From: Nanobdellota archaeon | GTDB lineage: Archaea > Nanobdellota > Nanobdellia > SCGC-AAA011-G17 > JACPNG01 | DNA length: 24,540 bases | Assembly: GCA_038046345.1 (NCBI GenBank) | Contig: JBBSWJ010000014.1 | Coordinates: 1 to 24,540 of the forward strand | Direction of reading: 5' to 3' | Shown: positions 2,390 through 24,540 of the stretch, one piece after another | Numbering within the stretch: the first letter of the stretch is position 1 | Layout of the letters: every line of letters begins with the position of its first letter | The notes under the pieces: generated by a model | What the model was told of the DNA's origin: nothing | The model's input: only the letters and a program-made list of their open reading frames with translations | Database searches by the model: none | Made by a program: the position numbers and the translations under genes

Positions 2390-2998
2390 CTAATAATATT
2401 TAAAATAATCTATATTTGTTGTAAAATGGTTTATTTTCCTTTCAAGGGTTCTTTCTTGTAATTTTAGTTCTTTAAATCTTCTTGCTATCCCCGTGCTTCC
2501 ACCAAAAAATGGTAGTGTAAGCCTTCCTAAAAGAGTGTTTTTATAAGAAAAGCGTTCTTCTTCGTTTCTTCCAATTGCGTGTTGTATCTGCTTTAATTGG
2601 GTGTGCAAGGCAGTAAGCTCATGATTATAATGATCTACTAATATTTCAGAGTATCGTGGTCTTTCAGGCGAATTTGATTGCGATTTAGGTAAAACGTAAG
2701 CGCTGATGCAATTATCCCTCTTGGTTATAAGCTTGTTTATTTCTCCATCAATGTTTTTTTCTTGTCCCTTTAGTTTTTTAAATCTCATTGCTATTCCGTT
2801 TCTTCCACCAAAAAATGGTAGTGTAAGCCTTCCTAAAAGAGTGTTTTTATAAGAAAAGCGTTCTTCTTCGTTTCTTCCAATTGCGTGTTGTATCTGCTTT
2901 AATTGGGTGTGCAAGGCAGTAAGCTCATGATTATAATGATCTACTAATATTTCAGAGTATCGTGGTCTTTCAGGCGAAGATTCCCGATTAGTTTTCAT
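2390..2998 (-). CDS. Hypothetical helical protein made of two ~102-aa tandem units (start moved to ATG 2998)
   Basis: SPERPRYSEIL...LTLPFFGG occurs twice. The promoter CCGAAAGATTTATA (3022-3035, minus strand) sits about 24 nt upstream of ATG 2998 and inside the longer ORF call. Confidence 0.75.
   Translation of the reverse strand: MKTNRESSPERPRYSEILVDHYNHELTALHTQLKQIQHAIGRNEEERFSYKNTLLGRLTLPFFGGRNGIAMRFKKLKGQEKNIDGEINKLITKRDNCISAYVLPKSQSNSPERPRYSEILVDHYNHELTALHTQLKQIQHAIGRNEEERFSYKNTLLGRLTLPFFGGSTGIARRFKELKLQERTLERKINHFTTNIDYFKYY
2496..2978. repeat. 177-bp perfect direct repeat, copies at 2496-2672 and 2802-2978 (period 306 nt)
   Basis: Base-by-base comparison by eye found no mismatch over 177 nt. 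The adjoining parts of the two units are homologous but clearly diverged. Confidence 0.95.
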
Positions 2999-3074
2999 AC
3001 ATTTATTACTCTTTAGTGGTATATAAATCTTTCGGTTGATAAACTGTAAAATAAATATTAAGACCAAACAATAA

Positions 3075-3200
3075 AACTATGCTTATACTAGGCACAATCA
3101 TTTTAGGCCACATCAGAACCTGAATTGGAAGACGCCATCAGAAATATTTCATGATCTTGCAAGGAATATTATCTGGTGACATATGTCACCTGATTACACA
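3075..3200 (+). mobile_element. IS481-type remnant: transposase C-terminus plus right terminal repeat
   Basis: Frame 3075-3179 reads NYAYTRHNHFRPHQNLNWKTPSEIFHDLARNIIW*, matching the integrase-core tail YN..RPH..L...TP.E. It is followed by GTGACATATGTCACCTGATTACACA, resembling IS481-family ends (GT.AC.TATGTC.CC.G...ACA). Confidence 0.65.
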
Positions 3201-3251
3201 CAGCTCACCTTTCAGTTAAGTTTATAAATAATTAAGTATTAGAATCTTGTT

Positions 3252-3722
3252 ATGAAAGGGGTTGATATTAGGGTAAGCACACCAACACAAGTGCTTGTAG
3301 TTGTTTTATTATTAGCTTCAGTGTTCTTTTTTGGAGCATTTGTACAATCAGTAGTTGGTATAACCACTGGATTTGCTACGAAAGATTCAAGATGCGGAAA
3401 TACTGCTGCATGTGTACAAGTAGTAAGCAGTTTTAAAGATGCAAATATAAAATATGAAATTGTGACACGCGATAGAGAAGATAATATCGTGGATGTAATA
3501 AGAGGAAATGTTGGCAGGGACGGTAAAGGTCCAGTGCATGTCCTTGGTGAAAATGGGTATTCTGAATTAGGTTTACGTAGCAGAACTTCACTGAATGTTT
3601 TTGTTTTAGACGTTGCTGATGAATATTGGGTATCTCGTAAACCAACTACTAGAACTATAAGAGGAAATGTAATGGAAGTTGTGACCTTAAATAGTGACGC
3701 TGTTGATATTAAAAGTAATTAA
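3252..3722 (+). CDS. Membrane-anchored/secreted hypothetical protein, paralog of 1883-2374
   Basis: MKGVDIRVSTPTQVLVVVLLLASVFFFGAFVQS aligns with MREVDLSLSTPRRMVLGVVVLLTVFFAGVYFQS. An ITTGFAT segment follows the helix. TTTATAAATA lies upstream at about 3221. Confidence 0.75.
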   Translation: MKGVDIRVSTPTQVLVVVLLLASVFFFGAFVQSVVGITTGFATKDSRCGNTAACVQVVSSFKDANIKYEIVTRDREDNIVDVIRGNVGRDGKGPVHVLGENGYSELGLRSRTSLNVFVLDVADEYWVSRKPTTRTIRGNVMEVVTLNSDAVDIKSN

Positions 3723-3724
3723 AA

Positions 3725-4471
3725 TTATTTTTTCCTGTTACCAAAAAATTCCATCAACTCTATTGGAATCGGGAGAATAATTGTAGAATTCTTTTCTGCT
3801 GATATCTCTTGTAATGTATGAAGCAACCTTAGCTGCAATGTGCTTGGATTTTTGCTCATTAATTGTGCAGCCTCTAAAAATGACTTAGCAGCTTCTTTCT
3901 CCCCGCTTGCTGAAGTAATCTTAGCACGTCTATCTCGTTCAGCTTCAGCCTGGGCAGCAAGAGCACGCTTCATGTTCTCTGGCAGTTCAATGTCTTTAAC
4001 TTCTATATTTGTAACTTTAATCCCCCAAACATCAGTTTCTTTATCAACAATACTTTGTATTTTAGTATTTATTGTTTCCCTTTTAGAAAGGATATCATCA
4101 AGTTCAAATTCACCAATAATATTCCGCATAGTTGTTTGAGCTAATTGTGACACAGCAAAATCAAAGTCTTCAACCTCAAGAACAGCCTTGTCAGGTTTAT
4201 TGACCTTATAATAAAGAACTGCATTAACCTTTAATGAGATATTATCCTTTGAGACACAATCCTGCCCAGGTACATCAACAGTCTTTACTCTAAGATCTAT
4301 TTTTTGGTATGACTGAAAAACCGGTATTACTAATCTCCAACCAGGGCTCATAATGCCTGAATATTTTCCTAATGTAAACTTAACACCTCGTTGATATTCG
4401 TTAACTTGACGAATAGAACTAACTAAAAGTAATGCTAAAGCCCCTCCAAGATAATAAATTGAGAAAACCAT
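3725..4471 (-). CDS. SPFH/band 7 (stomatin-like) protein
   Basis: N-terminal TM helix, V.EYQRGV.F.LG, DLRV.TVDVP.Q..VSKDN, LAQTTMR.IIG, WGIKV..IEVKDIELP, AEAERDRRA. Confidence 0.95.
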   Translation of the reverse strand: MVFSIYYLGGALALLLVSSIRQVNEYQRGVKFTLGKYSGIMSPGWRLVIPVFQSYQKIDLRVKTVDVPGQDCVSKDNISLKVNAVLYYKVNKPDKAVLEVEDFDFAVSQLAQTTMRNIIGEFELDDILSKRETINTKIQSIVDKETDVWGIKVTNIEVKDIELPENMKRALAAQAEAERDRRAKITSASGEKEAAKSFLEAAQLMSKNPSTLQLRLLHTLQEISAEKNSTIILPIPIELMEFFGNRKK

Positions 4472-4521
4472 GGAAGTAAGTAACCACTAAGGTTTAAAAA
4501 GTTTACTTTGTTTATTAAATT

Positions 4522-5181
4522 ATGGAAGATTCTAAAAATAAGGTTGAAGCGATATTATTCACAACCGGCAGGTTTATGGACGTAGAAGAGATAAGCAAAC
4601 TTTGTGGTATAGGGTCTGTAGGATACGTAAAAGAAGTTTTAAACAAACTAATAAAAGAGTTTAATGACAGACCAGGATCATTGATGGTGCAGCAGGAAAA
4701 TGGAAGGTTTAAATTAGCATTAAAAAAAGAATTTAATTATTTAACTGCAAACTTGTTAAGTGAAACAGAACTTGATGGGCCAACAATGAAAACACTTGCA
4801 TTAATTGCATATAAGCAGCCGGTTATGCAGTCTGAGATAGTTGAGATGCGTGGTAGTGGTGCTTATGATCATATTAAATCACTTAAAGAAAATGATTTTA
4901 TAGTATCAGACCGGAAAGGTAGAACTAAACTAATCAAACTATCCCCAAAATTTTATGATTATTTTGATATAATAGAGGGGGAGCTTAAGCCGCATTTGAA
5001 TTCTGAAAAAATTCAAAAAATTGATGAAGATACTACTAGTATGGAGCATGAAACTAAAGAACTAGAAAAAGTATCCACAAAAAAACATACTGATAAAACT
5101 ATCATTAATGTGCCTGATGAAGAATCTGATAGTATCAATGTGATAGAAGAAACTGTTGCTGAAGAAAAAAATGAACCTTAA
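4522..5181 (+). CDS. scpB: SMC-Scp complex subunit ScpB
   Basis: VEAILF, L....MKTLALIAYKQPV.QSEI..MRG...YDHIK.L, plus an acidic disordered tail. Confidence 0.92.
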   Translation: MEDSKNKVEAILFTTGRFMDVEEISKLCGIGSVGYVKEVLNKLIKEFNDRPGSLMVQQENGRFKLALKKEFNYLTANLLSETELDGPTMKTLALIAYKQPVMQSEIVEMRGSGAYDHIKSLKENDFIVSDRKGRTKLIKLSPKFYDYFDIIEGELKPHLNSEKIQKIDEDTTSMEHETKELEKVSTKKHTDKTIINVPDEESDSINVIEETVAEEKNEP

Positions 5182-6652
5182 AATAATAATCTTTATAGTG
5201 ATTATGGGGGTTTTAGCAGCAGGGATACAATTATATCTAGTGTTTAGAACTGATACTTTTAGCTCTGATGGATCTTATTTTTTGTTAAGACAAGCTGAAC
5301 ACATAAGTGAAACAGGGTTACCATTAAGATATGATGAGCTAAGCCATAGCGGAAGGACTATATTTGGAAGTCCTTTGTACTGGTATTTGCTTGGATTTTT
5401 TGGTTTTGTATTTGGGCTGGTGTCACTTAAGGTACTCCCAATATTATTTGTTTTTCTGATACCTCTAACAACCTATCTTGCTGCAGGATTGCTGGTAAAA
5501 GATAAGAAATATGCCTGTATTGCTGCGATATCTTCTGTATGGTTACCAATTATGTGGCGTGAAATACTTAATAAGCTAGAATCATTTGCGTTGTTCATAC
5601 CGCTTTCGATAATATTTTTTTATTTGTTTTTGAAGATTGATAATAAATTGTATTTAGCACCATTCCTTGTTGTAAGCTTTTTTATTGGTGCTTTAAATCC
5701 ATTAGTTTTTGTTATTGTTATAACGCTGATTATGTGGCATATACTTATTTATGTTGAGCAAATTAAGCTTACTGCAGTAAAAAAAGAAGCTACATTATTC
5801 CTGGGATTATTCGTGTTACTTTTTCAGTTCTTTTTTTACAAAGAGGTGTTTCTAAACAATGGAATGGGCGTGGTGTATCAGAATATACCAACAGGTGTAT
5901 TACAAAACTATTTTAGTGATTTAAGCTTCTTAGAGTTAGCTGGAAATATCGGGGTGTTATCAATAATATTTGGAATATATGGGCTATTTAGATCTATAAC
6001 AAAAAAGAATGAGGTTGTCTTATTATATGCTGCATTTGCGCTATCTTTATTGTTGCTTTTAATCTTTAAACTAATACCATTAAACATTGGGATAGTATTA
6101 CTAGGAGTAAGTTTTATTATTGTTTCAAGTGTTGGATATGAACGGTTTTTTAATTACCTCTCAATTACAAAGGTTGCAAGGTTTAGTAAAACTATTTTTG
6201 TGATAATGCTCTTGTTGATTATATTGCCCATGGGCTTACAAAGCATTAATGTTGGAGCTGAAGCTGTAGATAAAGCGCCAACTCCAATTGAGATTGAATT
6301 GCTTTCTTTTATAAGAGCAGAGACTCCTGTTTCGTCGGTAATCTTAGGCGGAATAAACGAGGGTCATCTTATTAATTATTATACACAAAGAAAAAATGTA
6401 ATTGACACTAACTTTATAGGCAGCGGGGATATCAATGATCGATACAATGCAGTTGAAGAGGTATACACAACTGAGTCAGAGGTATTTGCTTTAAAAAACC
6501 TTGAGAAATATTCTGTTGACTACATTTATTTATCTAAGGACATGCAAGAGGATATTGGTAAGGAAACATTGTCTTATTCTATCAATGAAGAATGTTTCCC
6601 ATTAATCTTCCAGCAGCTGGACGGGGGGAAATTGTATGAAGTGGCTTGCTGA
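5171..6652 (+). CDS. Multi-pass GT-C-fold (AglB/STT3-like) membrane protein; likely start is ATG 5171
   Basis: First TM, then SSDGSYFLLRQAEHI (STT3 EL1-like D..Y..R), many TM helices, and a C-terminal soluble domain LSFIRAETP..SVILG...GHLI....RKNVID...YSVDYIYL. There is no WWDYG. Confidence 0.65.
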   Translation: MNLKIIIFIVIMGVLAAGIQLYLVFRTDTFSSDGSYFLLRQAEHISETGLPLRYDELSHSGRTIFGSPLYWYLLGFFGFVFGLVSLKVLPILFVFLIPLTTYLAAGLLVKDKKYACIAAISSVWLPIMWREILNKLESFALFIPLSIIFFYLFLKIDNKLYLAPFLVVSFFIGALNPLVFVIVITLIMWHILIYVEQIKLTAVKKEATLFLGLFVLLFQFFFYKEVFLNNGMGVVYQNIPTGVLQNYFSDLSFLELAGNIGVLSIIFGIYGLFRSITKKNEVVLLYAAFALSLLLLLIFKLIPLNIGIVLLGVSFIIVSSVGYERFFNYLSITKVARFSKTIFVIMLLLIILPMGLQSINVGAEAVDKAPTPIEIELLSFIRAETPVSSVILGGINEGHLINYYTQRKNVIDTNFIGSGDINDRYNAVEEVYTTESEVFALKNLEKYSVDYIYLSKDMQEDIGKETLSYSINEECFPLIFQQLDGGKLYEVAC

Positions 6653-8006
6653 GCTTAAATTGTTGATACCATTAGTTGTGATTGTTGGTTTAGTGATCAT
6701 GATCCCGCAGGTGTTTAGAGAAGACTCTATTATAGGCGAAAAATCTTATTATTATCTTAGGATCGCAGAAGATCCATTGATAAGCGAAGATCCACTTAGT
6801 TTTGGCGGGCGCAGGCATGTTTTTAATCCGTATCCTATTATTATTACTTTTGTTGGAAGTATATTGGGTTTAGAACTGGCGTCAAAGATTGTGCCATTAA
6901 TTGTTTGTTTAATGATTGTGGTGATATTCTATTTCATTTTGAGGTTTCATGGTATAACTAAGACAATTAGTGTTTTATCTATTTTGTTGCTAGCTGGTAC
7001 ACCCTCGTTTTTGTATCTTGCAAATGTATCTGATACACATTCTGTTGTATTATTGCTGATACTCTTGGCTTATTTTTCTCAACAACTTAAAAATACTTTT
7101 TTTTCTACATTTTTTTTGCTACCAATTCCTCTGTTTGGGATTAATTATTTGGTGATAGTGTTATTTCTGTTGATGGTATTATGGATTCATTCAAAAAAAA
7201 TTCCAAGTATCCAGATGGTTGGAGTAGCTTGTGTTGGGCTTATACCCCTAATAAGGTATGGTCTTCCTGTGAGCTTATCCAGTCATGTGCTATTCCCATT
7301 TTTTGAGTTTGGTGTTATAAACGGTGTTAGTCTGTTTGTTCTTTTCCTAACAATTGTAGGGTTTCATTCGTTTCAGAATACAAAATATCAGTATGCTAGT
7401 GTGTATGCGCTGGTTATTGGATTATTTGTTTTAAGTTTATTTACAGAATGGGGAGCATCTTTCTTGATGATACCGGCTAGTCCAATAGCAATATTAGGCT
7501 TACAACATATGTTTAATGATGAACGAGGTTACAGATTTTTTCGGAATGCCATTTTAATACTAGCTGCTGCAGGAGTTGTGTTATCATCTGTGTTGGCAGT
7601 TGGCCAGTTAGTGGATGCTGAACCGTCTAAAGATGTGTTTAGTAGCCTGGAATTTTTGCGAGGTGAATCAAAAACTGAAAGTGTTGTTTTGTCCCATCCA
7701 GATAATGGATTTTGGATAAGTGCAATTAGTAGAAATAAGAATGTGATTGACGAGCATTATTATAATTCTCCTAACCTGAAAGAAAGATGGTATGATATTC
7801 AAACATTGTTTCATACAACTGATATTGATGAGGCAGAGAAGGTTATAAGGAAGTATAATATTAAATATTTTTACATTGATAAGGATATGAAATCTGGGCA
7901 AGTTTGGGACGGCAAAACTGGTTTGTTATTTTTATTTGGGGCTTCTAATAAATTTAATATAATATACGAAAGCGAAGAGGTTGAGATCTGGAAGAGTTTG
8001 TTTTGA
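6636..8006 (+). CDS. Second GT-C-fold (AglB/STT3-like) membrane protein, paralog of the upstream gene
   Basis: GEKSYYYLRIAE..DPLSFGGR, LEFLRGE....SVVLSHPDNGFWI....RNKNVID, KYNIKYFYI. It overlaps the upstream stop codon, suggesting translational coupling. Confidence 0.65.
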   Translation: MKWLAELKLLIPLVVIVGLVIMIPQVFREDSIIGEKSYYYLRIAEDPLISEDPLSFGGRRHVFNPYPIIITFVGSILGLELASKIVPLIVCLMIVVIFYFILRFHGITKTISVLSILLLAGTPSFLYLANVSDTHSVVLLLILLAYFSQQLKNTFFSTFFLLPIPLFGINYLVIVLFLLMVLWIHSKKIPSIQMVGVACVGLIPLIRYGLPVSLSSHVLFPFFEFGVINGVSLFVLFLTIVGFHSFQNTKYQYASVYALVIGLFVLSLFTEWGASFLMIPASPIAILGLQHMFNDERGYRFFRNAILILAAAGVVLSSVLAVGQLVDAEPSKDVFSSLEFLRGESKTESVVLSHPDNGFWISAISRNKNVIDEHYYNSPNLKERWYDIQTLFHTTDIDEAEKVIRKYNIKYFYIDKDMKSGQVWDGKTGLLFLFGASNKFNIIYESEEVEIWKSLF

Positions 8007-8203
8007 TTTGATGCAAAATCAGTAGTTGGTTCTTACCATATAGATTCTCAAGAAGGTCTAAATGGATTTGCAAGAGTTGTCAGAGAGCTTTAGAGACAAC
8101 GTTTCTTATTTTTCAGATTAGTCAAAGCCCAGATCTATTTTTTAGTCTCCGATTCGTTCTTTTATAGGAATGAAATTTTATTAAAACTAACATCGGAATT
8201 TAA

Positions 8204-8277
8204 CGAAGCCACCGAAGGCGATTTGGGAAAAATGCGAGCCGATAGGCGAAAACGCGGCGTGGTCGAGGCGAAGCCGA
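8204..8277. repeat. GC-rich cluster of three GCC/GGC mini-hairpins (REP-like)
   Basis: gcc-accgaa-ggc at 8208-8219, gcc-gata-ggc at 8238-8247 and ggc-gaa-gcc at 8267-8275, spaced about 30 nt apart in an otherwise AT-rich intergenic region. Confidence 0.5.
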
Positions 8278-8282
8278 AGAAG

Positions 8283-8751
8283 TCTAATGAGGGGCGAGAA
8301 AGATTTATAAATATTAACTAAATAGTAGTAACTATGGATATTGATTATCAAACATTGAGAGCTTTAGTTGATGGCTCTGAATTAGAAGATTGGACTGAAT
8401 TAAAATTTGAAGGTTTAACTATTTTGGTCGCCTATGATGACGAAAATTCTGGACAACCCGCAGAATATCATCATTTTGACAGTCATTACGAAATTTATTT
8501 ATGGGCATCAATAAGTCCAATCTTTAGAAAACCAATTGTACTTCATGAAGTAGCAGAATTAACTTTATCAGAAAAATATCAAAGAAATGGAATGTCTTCT
8601 GAAGAAGCACAATTGCAAGCTCATAATCGGGCCAGAGAATTAGATGAAATATACGCAAGAGAAATTTTTGATAATCCAACTTTTGATAAATATTTAGAAA
8701 TGAGAAAAGAACTTGTAGATCGCTTTAGAGGAGATTAAGCCCCTCATTCGA
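8283..8751. repeat. Inverted repeat pair bracketing the promoter and ORF of 8334-8738
   Basis: aatgaggggc at 8286-8295 and gcccctcatt at 8739-8748 are a perfect 10-bp inverted repeat (12/13 over 8283-8295 and 8739-8751). The right copy starts at the first base after the stop codon. Confidence 0.6.
8334..8738 (+). CDS. Acidic hypothetical protein with HExxE...H putative metal-binding (zincin-variant) motif
   Basis: PIVLHEVAELTL...GMSSEEAQLQAHNRA. It has its own promoter, AAAGATTTATAAATA at about 8299-8313, roughly 22 nt upstream. Confidence 0.65.
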   Translation: MDIDYQTLRALVDGSELEDWTELKFEGLTILVAYDDENSGQPAEYHHFDSHYEIYLWASISPIFRKPIVLHEVAELTLSEKYQRNGMSSEEAQLQAHNRARELDEIYAREIFDNPTFDKYLEMRKELVDRFRGD

Positions 8752-14178: not shown

Positions 14179-14805
14179 ATGAACCTTAAGAAGATATGGC
14201 AGTTTATATGGCATGATGACTCAATATGGAGCTGGCTTGTATCTGCAATATTAGCTTTCTTAATAGTCAAATTTTTGTTTTTACCGGGGCTGGGATTAGC
14301 TTTAGGAACAAGCCATCCAATAGTAGCAGTAGTAAGCGGAAGTATGGAGCATAAAACTGTTGGTGCTGATGGGGCTTATGGTGCTTGCGGTGTATTTATA
14401 ACCGAAAAGAAAAAATTAAGTTTTGATGAGTTTTGGAATATGTGCGGTGCTTGGTATCAAGAGCAGGTAAGTATTACAAAGGAGCAGTTTTCTCAGTACA
14501 ATTTTAAAAATGGATTTAATACTGGAGACATAATGGTGATATTGGGAATGAAACCAGAGAAACTTACTGTAGGGGAGGTAATAGTTTTTGATGTAGGCAG
14601 ATCAGACCCAATAATACATAGGATTGTTGGAATTTATGAATCAAATGGTAAGAGGGTGTTTCATACAAAAGGGGATCATAACAGCGCAAGTAGTAATTCT
14701 GAAAGTGAGATTTCTGAAGAACAAATTATTGGTAAGGCATGGTTTAGGATACCCTGGTTTGGATATGTAAAGCTGTTAGCAGTTAGATTAATCGGTATGT
14801 TTTAA
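14179..14805 (+). CDS. Archaeal signal peptidase I (S26, Sec11-type)
   Basis: N-terminal TM, VVSGSM, GD.....VG.VIVF, PIIHRI (Ser-His type), TKGDHN, IIGKA...IPWFGYVKL. Confidence 0.92.
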   Translation: MNLKKIWQFIWHDDSIWSWLVSAILAFLIVKFLFLPGLGLALGTSHPIVAVVSGSMEHKTVGADGAYGACGVFITEKKKLSFDEFWNMCGAWYQEQVSITKEQFSQYNFKNGFNTGDIMVILGMKPEKLTVGEVIVFDVGRSDPIIHRIVGIYESNGKRVFHTKGDHNSASSNSESEISEEQIIGKAWFRIPWFGYVKLLAVRLIGMF

Positions 14806-16416: not shown

Positions 16417-19400
16417 GTGATAATGTTGCTGATTAGAACAAAATCAATACTACAAATTTATCTGGTAATAACTATCATAATAATAAGCTCTCTTAATACT
16501 GTATCTGCAGAGCAGACAGGATGTTGTGAAGAAACAGCTTCTGGAGATACATGTTTAGCTACCACCCAGGAGAATTGTAAAGGTAAGTACCAGCTTGGTG
16601 TGCAGTGTGAAGATACAAATGTTTGTAATGTAGGATGCTGTTTAGTAAATAATCAATGCGCCAGCCAAACAGGACAATATTCATGTACACAGCAGGGCGG
16701 AGCTTATTTTGATGCTGAGTGCTCAGGAATAAAAGCATGCCAAGAAGGATGCTGCCAGATAGGAGATAATTTTTTTTTAGCGTCACAACAACAATGCATG
16801 GAGATAACAAGAAATGAAGGCCTAAAAGAAATAACTTTTTTCCCTGAAATAATCGATGAGTTTAGTTGTCTAGAACAAAAGAAAGGCTTAGATGAAGGAT
16901 GCTGTGCAAGCGGAGATATTTGTGCTTATACCACAAGAGAATTATGCGGAGAAGGAATCTTTGAAGAAAAAAAGTGCAGTGATATAGCATTATGCGCATG
17001 CGATGCAAAAGCGTATACTGGATGTGTAGATGAAGATGTATATTATTTTGATAGCTGCGGGAATAAAGAAGAGTTAGCAGAAGATTGTGATTATAATTCC
17101 GGAACTATTTGCAGTGAAGACAAGGAGAATGTACAATGTGTAAGCGTAAATTGTAAACAAACTCTAGACAGGAAAACATTATGGGGCGATGACGTAAGAG
17201 ATAATGATGGTGGCCCAAGAAAGAATGGAGAAAGCTGGTGTCAGTATGATGGTGCTGTTGGTGTTGGAAATGACCTAGTAGGAAGCAGGCATTACAGGCA
17301 TATGTGCGTGAATGGCAAAGAATTAGTTGAACCATGTAAAGATTATAGAGAAGAGTACTGTATTGAAGGAGAAGTAGAGTTTGATGGCGGTGAGGTGTAT
17401 AATCAAGCAAGGTGTATAACAAATAGCTGGGAAGATTGTACAACTGAATGCAATAGCGCTAAAGGGCTGAATGGAAATCAAAGAGATGCAGCTCTTCAAA
17501 AAGATAAAGTTTGTTGTGAAAATCCAGAGAGGAGTTGTTTGTGGAAGGGGGTACTATCATCAGAACTTGAAGCAGCCGCCCAAGCAGGATTAAGAGATCT
17601 TTGCGAAGATCCAGAAACAGGAGAACCGATACCATGTGCAACAATCAGGTCAGCAGAAGATGAAGGGGTCTGTATACCATTAGTACCACCAGGATTAGTG
17701 TTCTGGGAAGAAGATAATGATGGAACGCAGGAACCATCAGCAGATATTGTAGAATTTTGTGATGCAGGAACAAATAGCTGTGAAGTTTTTTTTACAAAAT
17801 CAGTAATGACCGGATATGAATGGGACTGCGCTGGAAACTGTGCATGTTTAGAACCAGAAAACTTCTATGTACCAACACAATCAGCATGTAATGCGTATGG
17901 TGATTGCGGAGTATTTTATAATGTTGCAGGAAAATTAAGCAGTGATGGATATGATTGCTCAACAAGTGATGGATTATGTTATGGAAACATACATGGTTAT
18001 GATTATGACTTTGATTCAATTGATTGGGATCGAGCACTTGGAGGGATTGGTGCATATAGTAAAGCTACACCACTCTCTTTTGGGACTGTAAACCTGGATA
18101 ATAATGTACTAAAATCTATGAAGCTTACTAGTGTTGCATTAGGTGGTGCATTTCTTGTAGGGGCCGTCGCGCTTTATTCAGCGGCAACAGCCCCAGCAGG
18201 CACTAGTGGGATACTTATATCAATAGGAACAAGTCTTGCATCAGCATGTGCAACAACAGCAGCATTCAGTTTTGGTATTCCATGTTTGATAGAAGGTATT
18301 GTAGCTGCAATTATAATAGCAACATTAGCAATACTATCATTTACAGAAGACTCAGACACTTTAGAAATAACAGCAACATGCGCACCATGGCAAGCACCAA
18401 GAGGATCAGAAGATTGTGAGCTATGCAGAGACTCAGAAATATTTGAAAAATTAGGATATGACACATGCAGTGAGTATAGATGTAAATCATTAGGAACAGC
18501 ATGCAAATATGTACAAGAAAATGAAGGAAGCCCAAGAAATCCTTGTTTAGCAAGCAATAGAAATGATGTTTCAGCACCAATAATAAATCCGTATCCGGAA
18601 GTTTTAACAGAAGGTTATAGCATAGAAGAGTATACTAATGGATATGAAATAACACCGATAGTAGATCCGTTTAATCTATTAACATTTGGAATAATAACAG
18701 ATGAACCAGCACAATGCAAGTTCTCAACAACTCCGGGAGTTAAATATGAAGAGATGCCAGCAGATTTTGGAGAGTCATACTTTTCAGAAGAACATGCATT
18801 AAAAATAAATCCAACACCAACAATATTCAATGAATACTATGTAAGATGCGAAGACATAAATGGAAGATCAAATGATGTTGATTATAAAATAGAATTCAGA
18901 GCAGATGACGCACCAGATCTGACACCCCCTATACTATTAGAAACATCAGTTATTAGCGGAGCAAGTGTATTAGCCGGAGTAGAACAATTAGTGGAATTTG
19001 AATTAAATGAACCATCAACATGCACATATGGAACAAATTCAATGCAATGCACGCATCAATCCGGAGAAGCATCATCATTAGCAAAATATGTATGCAAAGC
19101 AAGACTGCAAGTAACAGAAGGAATAAATGAATATAACATAACATGCCAAGACTTTGCTGGAAATAAAAATGCACAATCATACCTTTATGTGTTAGAAGGA
19201 GTGGAAGGAATAACAATAGAATCATTAGGACCAGAAGGAGAGCTTGAAACAAATTTAGTAACATTAGAAATAATAACATCAGGAGCAGCAATATGCAAAT
19301 ATACTTATCAAGGCGAGAAGCAATTTGAAATAACTGGAGAGACTGTACATAATTCAGAATTACCACAATTACAAAAAGGAACATATAATATTCCTGTAAG

Positions 19401-19692
19401 CTGCGAAGATGGTATAGGAACAGTTGTAATAAGTAAAATAAGTTTTATAATAACAAAGGATGATACAGCACCAAAAGTAATGCATTTATTTACAAATGCA
19501 GGAAACCTAATAATAGAAACTGATGAATATTCAATATGTAAATATTCTGATGATGCGTTTGATTTTCAAGATGGAACATTGTTAGATGGAACAGAAAAAG
19601 AACATTCATTAGTTATCTCAGAAGGAAGATATCACATTATTTGTGAAGATGCTTCAGGAAATCTTATGGATGAAATAGTTGTTTACCCATAA
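16417..19692 (+). CDS. Giant secreted Cys-rich protein A with central hydrophobic segments and C-terminal Ig-like repeats
   Basis: Signal peptide ending VSA-EQ; GCC repeats; RKNGESWCQYD...GSRHYRH.C; hydrophobic block at about 18124-18345; PWQAP.G...CE.C; D..PP.I/APKV Ig-like modules. The start could be GTG 16417 or ATG 16423. Confidence 0.85.
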   Translation: MIMLLIRTKSILQIYLVITIIIISSLNTVSAEQTGCCEETASGDTCLATTQENCKGKYQLGVQCEDTNVCNVGCCLVNNQCASQTGQYSCTQQGGAYFDAECSGIKACQEGCCQIGDNFFLASQQQCMEITRNEGLKEITFFPEIIDEFSCLEQKKGLDEGCCASGDICAYTTRELCGEGIFEEKKCSDIALCACDAKAYTGCVDEDVYYFDSCGNKEELAEDCDYNSGTICSEDKENVQCVSVNCKQTLDRKTLWGDDVRDNDGGPRKNGESWCQYDGAVGVGNDLVGSRHYRHMCVNGKELVEPCKDYREEYCIEGEVEFDGGEVYNQARCITNSWEDCTTECNSAKGLNGNQRDAALQKDKVCCENPERSCLWKGVLSSELEAAAQAGLRDLCEDPETGEPIPCATIRSAEDEGVCIPLVPPGLVFWEEDNDGTQEPSADIVEFCDAGTNSCEVFFTKSVMTGYEWDCAGNCACLEPENFYVPTQSACNAYGDCGVFYNVAGKLSSDGYDCSTSDGLCYGNIHGYDYDFDSIDWDRALGGIGAYSKATPLSFGTVNLDNNVLKSMKLTSVALGGAFLVGAVALYSAATAPAGTSGILISIGTSLASACATTAAFSFGIPCLIEGIVAAIIIATLAILSFTEDSDTLEITATCAPWQAPRGSEDCELCRDSEIFEKLGYDTCSEYRCKSLGTACKYVQENEGSPRNPCLASNRNDVSAPIINPYPEVLTEGYSIEEYTNGYEITPIVDPFNLLTFGIITDEPAQCKFSTTPGVKYEEMPADFGESYFSEEHALKINPTPTIFNEYYVRCEDINGRSNDVDYKIEFRADDAPDLTPPILLETSVISGASVLAGVEQLVEFELNEPSTCTYGTNSMQCTHQSGEASSLAKYVCKARLQVTEGINEYNITCQDFAGNKNAQSYLYVLEGVEGITIESLGPEGELETNLVTLEIITSGAAICKYTYQGEKQFEITGETVHNSELPQLQKGTYNIPVSCEDGIGTVVISKISFIITKDDTAPKVMHLFTNAGNLIIETDEYSICKYSDDAFDFQDGTLLDGTEKEHSLVISEGRYHIICEDASGNLMDEIVVYP

Positions 19693-19726
19693 AGTATTTA
19701 AAGAATAAGTGAAACAAACTAATATC

Positions 19727-20497
19727 ATGGAAAAAAGAGGGCAGGCTACAGTTTTCGTGGCTGTTGGAATAGTAATTGTGGTAGTTGTCGCGCTTATTTT
19801 ATACGGAAGACAAACTATTTTTTTGCCAGGAACACCGGACTCTTTGTCAAAAGTACTTGATGATGTAAACGAACATATAGTAGACTGTATAGGAGAGGTG
19901 AGTGAGAAACCAATAATACAAATAGGATTACAGGGTGGGTATCTAAATCCTGGTGTGGATACGTTTAGGCTACATAATGATACCAGGATAAGTTATTTGT
20001 GCTATAACATGGAGAATAGTGAATCATGCAGAAACAGATTATTATTAGTACAGAGTATGGAAGAAGAATTAAATGCAGCATTACAACCACAAATAATTTC
20101 ATGTGTGGGCAACATAAAAGACTTTGGAAAATTAAGACCTATTACAATTGAAGTACCTGAACAGTTTAAAGTTGCAACAAACATACTGCAAGATAATGTT
20201 GTTGTAGCAGTGGAGTATCCTGTTATTATAAAATCGGATAAAACTACTAATCAAGTACAGAGAAAAACTTTTGAAAAAATATTTGAAATACCATTAGGAG
20301 ACTTATACTTAGTAGTACAAGATGTGTTGGAACAAGAAATAACATTTGGGGACTTTGATCCATTATTGTACATGCTGTCAAAAAAAGGAGAGTATACCAT
20401 CATAAAAACTAGGCCATACCCAGATAAGTTATATGCTATATCTAGAAATGATAATGATTACCAGCTCCAATTTTTTATACAAGGACAACCAGGATGA
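19727..20497 (+). CDS. Archaeal type IV pilin-like protein (class III signal peptide)
   Basis: MEKRG|QATVFVAVGIVIVVVVALILY: basic residues plus GQ cleavage site and a hydrophobic helix, followed by a helix, GGY and Cys pairs. TATTTAAA lies about 25 nt upstream of ATG 19727. Confidence 0.8.
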   Translation: MEKRGQATVFVAVGIVIVVVVALILYGRQTIFLPGTPDSLSKVLDDVNEHIVDCIGEVSEKPIIQIGLQGGYLNPGVDTFRLHNDTRISYLCYNMENSESCRNRLLLVQSMEEELNAALQPQIISCVGNIKDFGKLRPITIEVPEQFKVATNILQDNVVVAVEYPVIIKSDKTTNQVQRKTFEKIFEIPLGDLYLVVQDVLEQEITFGDFDPLLYMLSKKGEYTIIKTRPYPDKLYAISRNDNDYQLQFFIQGQPG

Positions 20498-20555
20498 AAC
20501 TCCAAAAAATTATAAATAACATGGATTTTTTAAATATTCATAAGTTTAATTTCAG

Positions 20556-23500
20556 ATGAAAACACAATATATACTGATAATTGTATTGATTTTGTTAGCT
20601 ATGCCTATATCATTAGGACAAACAGATAGCAAGGCATGCTGTGAATTAACAAGGGCTGGAGATACTTGTGTGTTTACTGACTTCTCAAATTGTGATACTA
20701 ATGGAAGAGTAGCATTTACATCATGTGAACAAACTAATTTTTGCCAGTTAGGATGTTGTTTTTCTTCAGAAGAAGGAAGTTGTTCAAGAAATACTCCAAG
20801 AGCAAGCTGCGAGCAAGCAACAGGAACAAGTTTTGTAAATAATCCAACATGCGATATTGCTGCATGCCAAAGAGGATGCTGTTTGATAGGAGATGAAGCA
20901 TTTTTTGTAACGCAAACACAATGCAAACAAGTAGGAAGCCAATTCCCAGATGCGAATGTCGAGTATAACCCAGCATTAAGCACAGAAGCATCATGCTTAG
21001 AAGCATCAAGAAGTTTAGAGGTGGGTTGTTGTGTAACTGATGACCTTGCAACATTTACAACAAGAGAAAGCTGCAATCAAGGAAATGAAGCCGTTGGAAC
21101 AAATGAAAGTAAAGTAAGCAAATCAGGATTTTACCCAAACATGTTATGCAGCAATGATAGATTACAATCTGGATGCGCAAGACAACACCACACAGAATGC
21201 TACGATGGAAAGGTGTACTGGTTTGATTCATGCGGCAATAGAGAAAATATTTACGATGCAAACAAAGACAAAAGCTACAATCGTGGAATAGTATTAAGCG
21301 TAGAAGAATCATGCATTGCTGGAACAAATGATCCTAGCTGTGGTAATTGTGATTACTTCAAAGGAAATTTATGCGGTGAAGCACCAAGAGATGTTAAACC
21401 TGATAGTGGTGACTTAGCATGTATAAGCTTAGACTGTTCAGATACTGAATCATTTGAGTTCAGCCCAAGCTCTGGAGGAGAAAAAAAGCATGGAGAAAGC
21501 TGGTGCGTATATGATTATCAGCCAGGAGCTGGAAGTGACAGGCCTGGATCAAGGCATTATAGACATTCATGCATAGCAGGAAAAGAAATGGTGGAAGACT
21601 GCAGGGATTATAGAGAAGATATATGCATACAAGGGGTTATAGGGCAGGAAGCATTAATGACGTTAGAAGGTTTAAGAACTAATGGCGGTGATTACGTACA
21701 AGCAGCATGCAGGGATAATAGATGGGAAGAATGTATAAAATTAAGCAATAAAGGAGAATGTGACAATGAAGATTTATTTGACTGTTTCTGGCTTGAAGGA
21801 ACGTTAACTAATATTACAAAACCATTTACCACCAATGTTGGACGAGAAGAAGTTGTAACACCACCTGGTGCATGTGTACCACAAGTACCACCAGGATTAG
21901 TGCACTGGAATGATGAAACAGAGAATGTAGACTTAGGGAAGGAAAATGTACCTGCATTACAAGAAGCAAAAAATCCAATTGGAGATCAACCTGAAAGAGA
22001 TGCAACAGCTATATGCGCAGAAGCAACAAGGGAATGCGTTGTAGTGTATGAACAAGGAGGATGGGAAAAACTATTCGGTGACAAAGGAAAATGCGTAAGT
22101 AATTGTCATTGTGAAAAAAGAGACTGGATACTAGCAGTAGCAGATTACTGCCAAGCACAAGGAGACTGCGGAGCAGATTATAATATCAGAGGGGTTCTAA
22201 CACTTGAAGGATTTAACATTGAAAATCCTAAAAATAGTGATGATAGACTGACAGCTAAAGAAGTAGATAAAAGACCTGACTGCAAAAAAGGTGGATGCAG
22301 GGAATCGAAAGATTTTGATGAGCCAAGTTTCTTTAGCAGACTGGATGATAATAAAGGATGGATTGGATTATTAGGATTAGCAGCAAGTGGAACGTATTCT
22401 AGTTTAGCTGGTGGAGAATTTGTAGCTGGAGTGATAGGCGGACCTGCATATTATGGTCCTGGTTTGTTAAAAGGTGCAGGCATCGTTGCAGAAGAAATTT
22501 TTGGTACATCAGAATCATTAACTAATCTGATCTCACCTACCCATGAAAGTAGTCTTGGGAAACTTTTAAATGTCAAAGCACCAGCAGGTGTAGCAGCAGA
22601 AGCAGCATTAACAACAAAATTAGCAACAGAAGCAGCATTAACAAACGCACTAGCAGTAGCAGTAGACGCAGAAGTGGCATTTAAAGAAGCAACAGCTGCA
22701 GTACTAGACGCGCAAACAGCATTTGCAGAAGAATTATTTTCCACCTCACCAACAGCATTTGAGGAAGCAGGAGTGGCATTAACAAACGCACGAGCAGTAG
22801 CAGTAGACGCAGAAGTGGCATTAACAAACGCACGAGCAGTAGCAGCAAACGCCCAAACAGCATTTGCGGAAGCAGAAGCTGCCAGTACCAAAGGGGTAGA
22901 GTCTGCAGCATTAGGATCTGGTCATATTTTTACTATACTCAACATGGCAGCATGGGCGTACACTATTTATTCATTAGTTGACACTTTCTTTACGGATTAT
23001 GATTCATACACAATAACAACAACATGTTCACCATGGCAAGCACCAAGAGGAGGAAGACTATGTGAAACATGCAATGAACCAGGAAAACCATGTTCAGAAT
23101 ATAAATGCAGAAGCCTAGGACAAACATGCAGATTAATTAATTCAGGAACAAGTGATGAAAGATGCATTAACCTACACCCAAATGACGTAACAGCACCAAA
23201 AATAACACCAAATAAAGATATTTTAACAAAAGGATATCAAGTAAGAGAAATAAATGATGCTTTAGGGTTTGGAGTAGAACCAGATGTAGATCCATTCACA
23301 CCATTACTTGTAGGAATAAATATCAATGAACCAGCAACATGCAAGTATGACCTAAATGCTTCAACATCTTACGACCAAATGAGATATAACTTTGGAGTAA
23401 GCCAATTCCTGTATAACCAATCATTATTAGTAAGCTTCCCAGCGGAATTAGCAAGTGAAGATGCATTAAGAATAACAAATGGCGGAAGATACAATTTATA

Positions 23501-24413
23501 TGTAAAATGCCAAGATGCATCAGGAAACAAAAACGATAAAGATTATCTAATAAGATTCAAAATAAAACCAGGACCGGACCTAACACCACCAATAATAGAA
23601 GCAACAAGTATACCTGATGGAGGAAGCATAATAGCTGGAGTAGACAGCACCGGATTCAGCTTATTCTTAAATGAACCAGCAACATGCAAGTACGGAACAA
23701 ATGATTTAGTATATGAAGAATTACAAAACGAATTCTCATGCACAAAATCAGGATTCCAAACAGTAAGCAATTTCTTAAGCGCATACGAATGTACAACAGA
23801 ACTAGAAAACATAATAGAAGGAGAAAATAATTACTATTTTAGATGCAAAGACAAAGCAGGAAATGTAAACGAAGAAGGAATTAAGTTTAAACTATTTGGA
23901 ACAAAACCATTAGAAATATTAAGCTTCAGCCCTGACAGAGAAGAATTTGCAATAACAAATGTAACATTACAAGCAGAAACAGGAGTCGGAGCTGAAAATG
24001 GAAACGCAGTATGCGGTTATACTCTTGGTGGTGTAACATTTGAGTTTGCAAGCACTGGAGGAACAACACATACAGAACAATTAAGCGGCTTAGCAAGCGG
24101 GGAGTACACAATACCAGTAATATGTAATGATATAGCTGGAAACGAAGCAAAAGTTGTAATGTCTTTTGTGATAAGAAGAGATGAGTTTCCACCAGTACTA
24201 ACACAAGTTTTTAGCAGTGACGGGATATTGCATATTGAAACCAATGAAGAAACAATATGCGAAGTATCTGATAGAACTTTCGAGTTTGGAAGCGGAATAG
24301 CAATGACTGGTGATGGAACAAAAGAACATGAGGCAGTAATTGAAGGAGAAAGCTTGTACATATTATGCCAAGATATCTTTGAGAATGAATTGAGAATAAC
24401 TGTGTTTCCTTGA
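20556..24413 (+). CDS. Giant secreted Cys-rich protein B, paralog of 16417-19692, with an Ala-rich coiled-coil insert
   Basis: It has the same ordered modules as protein A (ACCE, GCC repeats, KKHGESWC.YD...GSRHYRH.C, VPPGLV.W, A.GDCG..YN..G, PWQAPRGG..CE.C, PDLTPPII). Confidence 0.85.
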   Translation: MKTQYILIIVLILLAMPISLGQTDSKACCELTRAGDTCVFTDFSNCDTNGRVAFTSCEQTNFCQLGCCFSSEEGSCSRNTPRASCEQATGTSFVNNPTCDIAACQRGCCLIGDEAFFVTQTQCKQVGSQFPDANVEYNPALSTEASCLEASRSLEVGCCVTDDLATFTTRESCNQGNEAVGTNESKVSKSGFYPNMLCSNDRLQSGCARQHHTECYDGKVYWFDSCGNRENIYDANKDKSYNRGIVLSVEESCIAGTNDPSCGNCDYFKGNLCGEAPRDVKPDSGDLACISLDCSDTESFEFSPSSGGEKKHGESWCVYDYQPGAGSDRPGSRHYRHSCIAGKEMVEDCRDYREDICIQGVIGQEALMTLEGLRTNGGDYVQAACRDNRWEECIKLSNKGECDNEDLFDCFWLEGTLTNITKPFTTNVGREEVVTPPGACVPQVPPGLVHWNDETENVDLGKENVPALQEAKNPIGDQPERDATAICAEATRECVVVYEQGGWEKLFGDKGKCVSNCHCEKRDWILAVADYCQAQGDCGADYNIRGVLTLEGFNIENPKNSDDRLTAKEVDKRPDCKKGGCRESKDFDEPSFFSRLDDNKGWIGLLGLAASGTYSSLAGGEFVAGVIGGPAYYGPGLLKGAGIVAEEIFGTSESLTNLISPTHESSLGKLLNVKAPAGVAAEAALTTKLATEAALTNALAVAVDAEVAFKEATAAVLDAQTAFAEELFSTSPTAFEEAGVALTNARAVAVDAEVALTNARAVAANAQTAFAEAEAASTKGVESAALGSGHIFTILNMAAWAYTIYSLVDTFFTDYDSYTITTTCSPWQAPRGGRLCETCNEPGKPCSEYKCRSLGQTCRLINSGTSDERCINLHPNDVTAPKITPNKDILTKGYQVREINDALGFGVEPDVDPFTPLLVGININEPATCKYDLNASTSYDQMRYNFGVSQFLYNQSLLVSFPAELASEDALRITNGGRYNLYVKCQDASGNKNDKDYLIRFKIKPGPDLTPPIIEATSIPDGGSIIAGVDSTGFSLFLNEPATCKYGTNDLVYEELQNEFSCTKSGFQTVSNFLSAYECTTELENIIEGENNYYFRCKDKAGNVNEEGIKFKLFGTKPLEILSFSPDREEFAITNVTLQAETGVGAENGNAVCGYTLGGVTFEFASTGGTTHTEQLSGLASGEYTIPVICNDIAGNEAKVVMSFVIRRDEFPPVLTQVFSSDGILHIETNEETICEVSDRTFEFGSGIAMTGDGTKEHEAVIEGESLYILCQDIFENELRITVFP
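22591..22870 (+). repeat. Intragenic near-identical tandem repeats encoding Ala-rich 10- and 14-residue units
   Basis: tagca(g/a)cagaagcagcattaacaa at 22591 and 22621 (period 30). agtggcattaacaaacgcacgagcagtagcag at 22772 and 22814 (period 42). A 47-nt block at 22635 and 22776 has one mismatch. Confidence 0.9.
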
Positions 24414-24467
24414 GAAGGGATATATTTATAAATAAGTGTTACTTTAAGTAGTATGGAGGTAATACTT

Positions 24468-24540
24468 ATGGAATTTAAGAAAATAACAATATCCCTGCCT
24501 AAGAGCTTGTATGAAGAAGGAATGAACCTTGTTAATAAGG
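24468..24540 (+). CDS. Ribbon-helix-helix (CopG-like) regulator, N-terminus only
   Basis: MEFKKITISLPKSLYEEGMNLVNK has an alternating beta-strand plus helix. GGAGGT SD at 24455-24460 and TTTATAAATA at 24425-24434. An in-frame ATG at 24453 is an alternative start. Confidence 0.6.
   Translation, partial: MEFKKITISLPKSLYEEGMNLVNK

Follow-up and report, generated by a model that had tools for sequence, protein, structure and literature searches.

Our analysis suggests that two giant, cysteine-rich exported proteins of a tiny Nanobdellota archaeon of Woesearchaeota type probably form an undescribed cell-surface attachment complex. They are encoded on either side of a gene for a pilin-like protein, p262, in a stretch of 24,540 nucleotides (the window) that is the whole of contig C14 (JBBSWJ010000014.1) of a 0.82 Mb genome, 97% complete; the same contig also codes for PCNA, RpoL and AMMECR1. 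We tentatively propose that the two giants, A and B, serve as the large subunits of an adhesion complex that is conserved, exposed on the cell surface and docked on pilin-like proteins, A being tethered in the membrane of its own cell and B untethered. A and B are paralogs and the only members of their family in this genome, of which they alone make up about 1%. The features on which the argument turns are the following.

16417 to 19692 (+): giant protein A, the A-type paralog, predicted to be membrane-tethered; 1091 amino acids, 70 Cys
16417 to 16509 (+): Sec-type signal peptide of A (…NTVSA↓EQ)
16516 to 16986 (+): four GCC repeats of A, small units of a beta-hairpin and a helix (motif; AlphaFold2, AF2)
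16987 to 18111 (+): conserved Cys-rich, beta-rich core of A with GESWC.YD…GSRHYRH, VPPGLV.W and GDCG..YN (alignment, AF2)
18112 to 18351 (+): central hydrophobic block of A, Gly/Ala-rich marginal segments and then one strong helix (dG, alignment, AF2)
18352 to 18564 (+): C.PWQAPRG / CSEY.C.SLG disulfide module of A, its first beta-strand starting directly after the helix (alignment, AF2)
18565 to 19689 (+): four immunoglobulin (Ig)/fibronectin type III-like domains of A, each with a conserved Cys pair (AF2, fold search)
19709 to 20497 (+): p262, pilin-like protein (MEKRG↓QATVF… and a hydrophobic helix), partner of the downstream giant gene; 262 amino acids
20556 to 24413 (+): giant protein B, the B-type paralog, without an insertable helix; 1285 amino acids, 64 Cys
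22371 to 22520 (+): Gly-rich, weakly hydrophobic segment of B, of low confidence in AF2
22593 to 22892 (+): Ala-rich insert of B, predicted by AF2 to be an antiparallel hairpin of two 48-residue helices, lineage-specific
22767 to 22852 (+): 42-nucleotide tandem duplication inside the B hairpin, two copies, 93% matches
22920 to 22988 (+): conserved amphipathic aromatic helix of B (N..AW.YT.Y…D), at the position of the membrane helix of A
22995 to 24410 (+): C.PWQAPRG module of B followed by four Ig-like domains

Starts slightly inside two of these reading frames are likelier: ATG at 16423 for A, whose database copy begins at M3, and ATG at 19727 for p262, which gives MEKRGQ followed by a 24-residue hydrophobic helix.

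A pilin-like gene coupled to a giant gene

The basic unit of genes here pairs a pilin-like gene of the p262 type with a giant gene, the two being translationally coupled. A homolog of p262 lies no more than 3 kb from the giant in 62 of 79 species loci, Pacearchaeota included, and the p262 gene and the giant gene behind it share 4 nucleotides in 11 loci. One genome has a p262 gene ahead of each giant and two have a single p262–giant unit, which identifies this pair as the unit. About 15 loci from different families of the order conserve the arrangement (PCNA), A, p262, B, (p160), p327, p168, p153, S-layer gene; B, p327, p168 and p153 overlap in series, and the S-layer gene follows 200–310 nucleotides further on. 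The window stops 127 nucleotides past B (24414–24540). Because the conserved downstream genes of the cluster sit at the start of a second contig, C19 (1–8435), C14 and C19 probably adjoin in the genome. There lie, in order, genes for proteins of 327, 168 and 153 amino acids with K(K)G/A↓Q-type N-termini, an S-layer gene (2648–4984, 778 amino acids; PF05124, S_layer_C, at 1.7e-10) whose product ends without a membrane anchor, a methyltransferase gene and the gene for AglB (5724–8435), in which the WWDYG motif is present.

p262 reads MEKRG↓QATVFVAVGIVIVVVVALILY, a pattern kept in its orthologs and in p327, p168 and p153. It has the short basic leader ending in Gly or Ala, the Gln at +1 and the hydrophobic helix of about 20 residues that define a class III (prepilin-type) signal, and a first-pass annotation of the window, made from the letters alone, was right to describe A and B as flanking a KRGQ gene. 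The pilin-like proteins of the cluster begin with K(K/R)G↓Q and a hydrophobic helix (p168 reads QIAMIELLMV), and weak Pilin_N and GspG matches occur among them; p153 matches Pilin_N (PF07790/DUF361) at E 0.002 and 19.4 bits, below the cut-off of 25.2. A previous survey noted that DPANN "dark matter" near type IV pilus genes probably consists of diverse pilins (Makarova et al., PMC6393860). The single A24 (class III signal) peptidase of the genome is encoded at C7:26387–27196. Of the two linkages that the first-pass annotation proposed to check, that to pilins is found in these loci and their gene overlaps; that to a type IV pilus ATPase is not, the ATPase gene lying on another contig.

The cluster varies among relatives. 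Some genomes have three giants per cluster, either two tandem A-types with a B-type or A with two longer copies. In locus L021 (G029:C2) unrelated ORFs (open reading frames) of ~420 amino acids are inserted between the giants and the p262 gene, and in relative G019 (C7 locus) a B-type and an A-type gene stand without p262 between them. The genome of G019, estimated at 100% completeness in 70 contigs, also gives no match to the platform family T2SSF, which may reflect giants that exist in the absence of the pilus platform, or else an assembly gap.

A shared scaffold without named relatives

BLASTP aligns the N-terminal halves of A and B at 30% identity (E 4e-69) and the C-terminal halves at 35% (E 4e-84), and finds no alignment between their central blocks. 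Common to both are the GCC repeats and the motifs GESWC.YD...GSRHYRH, VPPGLV.W, GDCG..YN and C.PWQAPRG...CSEY.C.SLG, and the protein endings, IVVYP / ITVFP, are conserved among homologs. In alignments of 68 and 111 homologs the Cys, Trp, Gly and Arg residues of the motifs are mostly invariant or more than 90% conserved, and W274, S290, R291, H292, Y293, R311 and D496 are invariant or nearly so. Since every motif quoted in the first-pass annotation is present in both proteins and conserved in these homologs, its observation of two paralogs with a shared, ordered scaffold is confirmed.

The AF2 model of A, built from 68 sequences (predicted local distance difference test score, pLDDT, 84.4; predicted template modeling score, pTM, 0.63), places in order a signal helix, four small GCC units, a beta-rich core, the central stretch, the C.PWQAP module and four beta-sandwiches. 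At its center are an unconfident region (562–631), a helix (626–641) and the strand (645–655) that opens the C.PWQAP module. The model of B residues 200–895 (pLDDT 78) has the same core and continues with an unconfident region (600–679), helices 680–727 and 732–779 as a hairpin, helix 789–811 and strand 814–824.

A search of 1.8 billion cluster representatives returned 2689 family proteins at E<1e-3 and 913 at E<1e-30, nearly all of 950–1400 amino acids and annotated at source as hypothetical; the named homologs belong to metagenome-assembled genomes of Candidatus Woesearchaeota, Pacearchaeota and Nanoarchaeia from groundwater, sediment and marine sites. There are at least 536 family loci among species representatives. 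All 17 high-quality relatives of the same order carry the family, as do about 50 of the 57 genomes of the order and one family of another order (88 of 301 genomes in total), and most other orders of the class are without it. The closest orthologs of A and B are only about 50–75% identical.

Profile searches of A, B and p262 against Pfam, NCBIfam and PDB gave no named relative, the only match being Big_13 (PF19077) in the C-terminal part (31.9 bits against a cut-off of 27 for B, residues 1167–1206; 14.8 bits, below the cut-off, for A). ESM Atlas searches matched unnamed Nanobdellota clusters only, A and B match none of the S-layer family models S_layer_N/C and TIGR01564, and we found no description of the family in the literature, all in keeping with the earlier claim that it is uncharacterised; there was likewise no match to a known S-layer or enzyme family. 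Nor do A and B match PilY1 (PF05567; Pfam hmmscan at E<=1) or, in Pfam, HAP2 or a toxin. Foldseek against PDB and viral models (BFVD) gave no hit at E<1e-3 and only generic hairpin matches; the fold lists were filled by Ig domains for whole A and by the 96-residue hairpin for B 200–895, so that the Cys-rich core was barely probed, and within that scope the searches returned no core match and no likeness to fusogens, pore-formers, PilY1 or a beta-propeller.

Two types of central block

The variable blocks of the first-pass annotation, A residues 570–643 and B residues 601–812, coincide with the block that is hydrophobic in A and with the poorly conserved stretch in B. As it had anticipated, the center is less conserved than the flanks: across the 111-sequence alignment the mean top-residue frequency is 0.11–0.24 in the central block versus 0.4–0.65 in the flanks, and block length ranges from 24 to 344 residues. 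Identity among A orthologs falls from 0.45–0.76 in the flanks to about 0.38 in the block, and among B orthologs from 0.4–0.7 in the flanks to 0.13–0.17 in the insert.

Helix insertion, scored as dG on the Hessa scale, distinguishes the two types. A has two marginal segments (573–591 and 599–617, dG about +2.0) and one strong helix (624–642, dG -0.7). A-type proteins have one such helix (dG -0.4 to -5.7), always ending a few residues ahead of the C.PW strand and preceded by an uncharged Gly/Ala/Thr-rich stretch with marginal segments. B-types have no segment below about +2, B itself has nothing insertable outside its signal peptide, and where A-types have the membrane helix B-types keep a conserved amphipathic helix, N..(A/M)W.YT.Y...D. 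The first-pass annotation proposed a membrane-inserting center for both paralogs, but only A has a segment hydrophobic enough to insert. The "LIE" at the start of the A helix was considered as a pilin Glu5 motif and rejected because it is not conserved in orthologs.

We assigned proteins to the A-type or B-type by tree and gene position, as a simple BLAST-score split did not separate them. A tree was built from 38 giants at 21 loci. In it the B-types, encoded by the long genes that follow p262, group together with support 98, and their clade is nested among the A-types. The two middles therefore reflect an old duplication and divergence and not a swappable cassette of the kind suggested in the first-pass annotation, and on this phylogeny the A-type/B-type difference is an ancient, stable split. 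Within B-types, turnover is fast in the region that links the Gly-rich segment to the amphipathic helix: in this genome it is an Ala-rich hairpin with a tandem duplication, in a sister ortholog (54% identity overall) the insert is acidic and Pro/Thr-rich, and other B-types look beta-rich. In the A block the greasy composition is kept while the sequence drifts, as in anchors and linkers. The greasy middle looks like a membrane anchor that was lost in one copy, not a proven fusion device.

Both Cys-rich halves of the giants are very probably extracellular, as the first-pass annotation held. A and B are the second and third most Cys-rich ORFs of the genome (6.4% and 5.0%; the median is 1.0%), and a signal peptide opens every ORF at the top of that ranking. 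Neither A nor B has a C-terminal hydrophobic anchor, a point on which the earlier reading was correct. B has no membrane span, so the whole of B is expected outside; the C-terminal half of A is homologous to that of B, with the same conserved Cys pairs, including those of the Ig-like domains, and both halves of A would therefore be outside as well. For this to be so, the strong helix of A must pair with a marginal segment as a hairpin in its own membrane. This hairpin topology is a deduction from homology with B, not the output of a predictor.

Other filament and surface loci of the genome

The type IV filament locus of canonical make-up lies apart from the A/B cluster, at C24:7390–14623 (minus strand), and comprises four pilins with "(G)VSPLIATVLIIGF" heads, a 520-amino-acid ATPase, platform genes of 428 and 290 amino acids and two further small membrane proteins. 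This set, with its ATPase and two platform genes, is the "system 1" of PMC13705601. A T2SSF platform protein is present in 77 of 79 high-quality genomes of the order, and co-occurrence of the giants with a filament platform is therefore uninformative.

Other p262-like genes precede unrelated giant exoprotein genes on contigs C7 and C20. A second surface locus, at C7:1641–11412 (minus strand), starts with a 246-amino-acid paralog of p262 (27% identity, E 1e-12), followed by a 219-amino-acid secreted protein, a Cys-rich protein of at least 714 amino acids (62 Cys) broken by an assembly gap, and a 152-amino-acid KKGQ protein overlapping one of 1427 amino acids and 103 Cys; Lys-rich repeats that follow the pattern AGW..(S/T)EI..A close both large proteins. 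At C20:32081–39480 (plus strand) a 662-amino-acid protein has a p262-like N-terminal domain (29% identity over 221 amino acids), and its gene overlaps by 4 nucleotides a gene for a signal-peptide protein of 1804 amino acids with ordinary Cys content.

Upstream of A, at 14179–14805 (plus strand), the window encodes a 208-amino-acid membrane protein with VAVVSGSMEH…GD…IIHR motifs typical of Sec11/S26B-type signal peptidase I and no Pfam match at E<=0.01. Most related loci keep this gene upstream (41–56% identity), along with PCNA, a Zn-ribbon ORF and an OB-fold ORF.

A tentative model and its alternatives

We envision a scenario in which the pilin-like proteins would be cut by the single class III signal peptidase of the genome and their hydrophobic helices would assemble into a short stem, rooted in the membrane or resembling a pilus, on which the giants are carried. 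Such a structure would correspond in archaea to the priming and tip complex of bacterial minor pilins and PilY1. A would additionally be held in its own membrane by a helical hairpin made of the marginal Gly/Ala-rich arm and the one strong helix, so that both its Cys-rich halves stay outside. B would have lost the anchor, and of its middle only the amphipathic helix, lying at the membrane interface, and an insert under loose constraint would remain. The parts reaching out across the S-layer would be the GCC repeats and the Ig-like arrays; through them the complex would attach, probably to a host cell, which is a plausible role.

Several observations weigh against this model. p262, p327 and p160 have no Pfam match and their identity as pilins comes from N-terminal motifs only. 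The type IV filament ATPase and platform genes are never in the A/B cluster, and the pilins beside the ATPase have an N-terminus different from that of the cluster's. The central block is modeled by AF2 at pLDDT below 50. Many A-types show one clear membrane helix, often followed by Lys residues, and such a one-span count, read naively, places the C-terminal half of the A-type inside; we tentatively consider this odd count, which the first-pass annotation had named as refuting its reading, to be outweighed by the homology with span-free B. The complex is known here from genes and predicted models alone, and a near-universal single copy beside an S-layer gene fits a housekeeping role in the envelope equally well.

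That last possibility deserves the most serious hearing among the alternatives, although we think it rather unlikely. On this account the giants, with uncleaved or short pilin-like proteins, would make up a frame, anchored in the membrane, to space, anchor or help assemble the S-layer, in the way that the Sulfolobales stalk protein SlaB serves SlaA, and would not be specifically involved in contact with a host. The neighborhood of the S-layer gene and AglB is conserved, the S-layer protein is itself unanchored at its end, the cluster is nearly universal in the order, and a membrane-tethered A with an untethered B is what an anchor and outer-subunit pair would look like. Divergence is likewise ordinary, with A and B at 41–63% identity to their nearest relatives and neighboring ordinary genes at 54–71%. 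However, the giants resemble no S-layer or stalk protein, most other orders of the class have S-layers yet are without the family, Ig-like arrays and Cys-rich repeats are typical of adhesins, and units of a p262-like gene and a giant recur with unrelated giants in the same genome.

It is quite improbable that the giants are membrane-active effectors, in which the Gly/Ala-rich hairpin of A and a latent Gly-rich segment of B, carried on the coiled-coil hairpin, enter or fuse the host membrane from a pilus tip. DPANN archaea form cytoplasmic contacts with hosts, uncharged Gly/Ala-rich stretches of 60–120 residues resemble fusion peptides or glycine zippers, and the insert differs even between sister orthologs. 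Against this, the Foldseek and Pfam searches returned no fusogen or toxin within the limits given above, a strongly hydrophobic helix made via Sec would lodge in the cell's own membrane, and B has no insertable segment. The variation also resembles relaxed constraint: composition is kept in the A block, the B insert grows by tandem duplication of 42 nucleotides, and the overall divergence of A and B is ordinary, all of which argues against the diversifying effector of the first-pass annotation.

There is similarly little to recommend a surface enzyme or binding platform, with the invariant polar cluster (E-S-W-C, S-R-H-Y-R, D-Y-R-E) as a catalytic or ligand site for processing of glycans or the host envelope or, in a variant, for nutrient capture, the pilin-like proteins arranging the core as in the Sulfolobus bindosome. 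The invariance or near-invariance of the seven residues listed above, W274 among them, would suit such a site, and archaeal proteins with class III signals include substrate-binding proteins (PMC13705601), but A and B match no enzyme or binding domain in Pfam, NCBIfam or PDB profiles and the cluster has no ABC transporter. A host-contact machine of Woese- and Pacearchaeota, in which a pilin-stemmed spike uses the Gly/Ala-rich hydrophobic hairpins of A and latent membrane-active segments of B, on a coiled-coil hairpin, to enter the host membrane and open or fuse a cytoplasmic bridge, is another long shot; were it true, the giants would be a class of prokaryotic fusogen or translocator without known relatives.

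Implications

Few uncultured DPANN archaea are as abundant as Woese- and Pacearchaeota, which have genomes below 1 Mb and a presumably host-dependent life; we know of no attachment structure for them. The A/B operon is the clearest genomic candidate for their surface apparatus, because it is nearly universal in the order, devotes about 1% of the genome to A and B alone and has components that are nameless in databases. If the adhesion model is right, archaea would have in it their first equivalent of the bacterial pairing of minor pilins with a large adhesin. What is new here is the anchor dichotomy of A-types and B-types with its phylogeny, the coupling of p262 to a giant as the basic unit, the predicted helical hairpin of B with its tandem duplication, and the cluster rebuilt across the C14/C19 break. 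The pair also offers a natural comparison between a membrane-tethered and an untethered subunit, and concrete targets for cryo-electron tomography, proteomics and antibody work.

Comparison with known systems

The B hairpin recalls the receptor-binding domain of colicins E2/E9, the N-terminal coiled coil of IpaB/SipB and the hairpins of MacA/AcrA, a generic fold at these scores. Unlike those domains, it is confined to this lineage, and sister orthologs have acidic Pro/Thr-rich or beta-type inserts. The pair as a whole resembles SlaA/SlaB in comprising two large surface proteins, one predicted to be membrane-tethered and one not, at an S-layer locus. It differs in that a separate S_layer_C-type gene lies next door, there is no homology, and the anchor is central rather than terminal.

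EppA cuts the Epd pilins of Methanococcus after a short signal whose last residue is Gly, and these pilins carry Gln at +1 and Glu at +5 (PMC3875500); some Nanobdellati have "system 1" filaments, for which there are two platform genes (PMC13705601). Unlike Epd, no protein of our cluster reaches a curated Pfam pilin cut-off, p262 has no acidic residue in its first positions, and no giant Cys-rich partner is described for Epd loci. The cluster resembles the Epd/system 1 of Methanococcus maripaludis in its class III signals, which are short, close on Gly or Ala and put Gln at +1 and a Glu shortly afterwards; the genome likewise has an ATPase with two platform genes, and its pilin genes sit at separate loci.

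In organization the cluster parallels a bacterial system. In Pseudomonas the minor-pilin/PilY1 set fimU-pilVWXY1Y2E makes the priming and tip complex of the type IVa pilus. Our system departs from it in being archaeal, sited beside an S-layer gene and known here from genes alone, in having two paralogous giants without a Pfam match to PilY1, and in the central membrane helix predicted in one of them, which PilY1 lacks. In both systems, nevertheless, a single operon combines four or five pilin-like proteins of graded size (about 150–330 amino acids) with a Sec-exported non-pilin of about 1100–1300 amino acids, the assembly ATPase and platform genes lie elsewhere, and the large protein is the presumed adhesive part.

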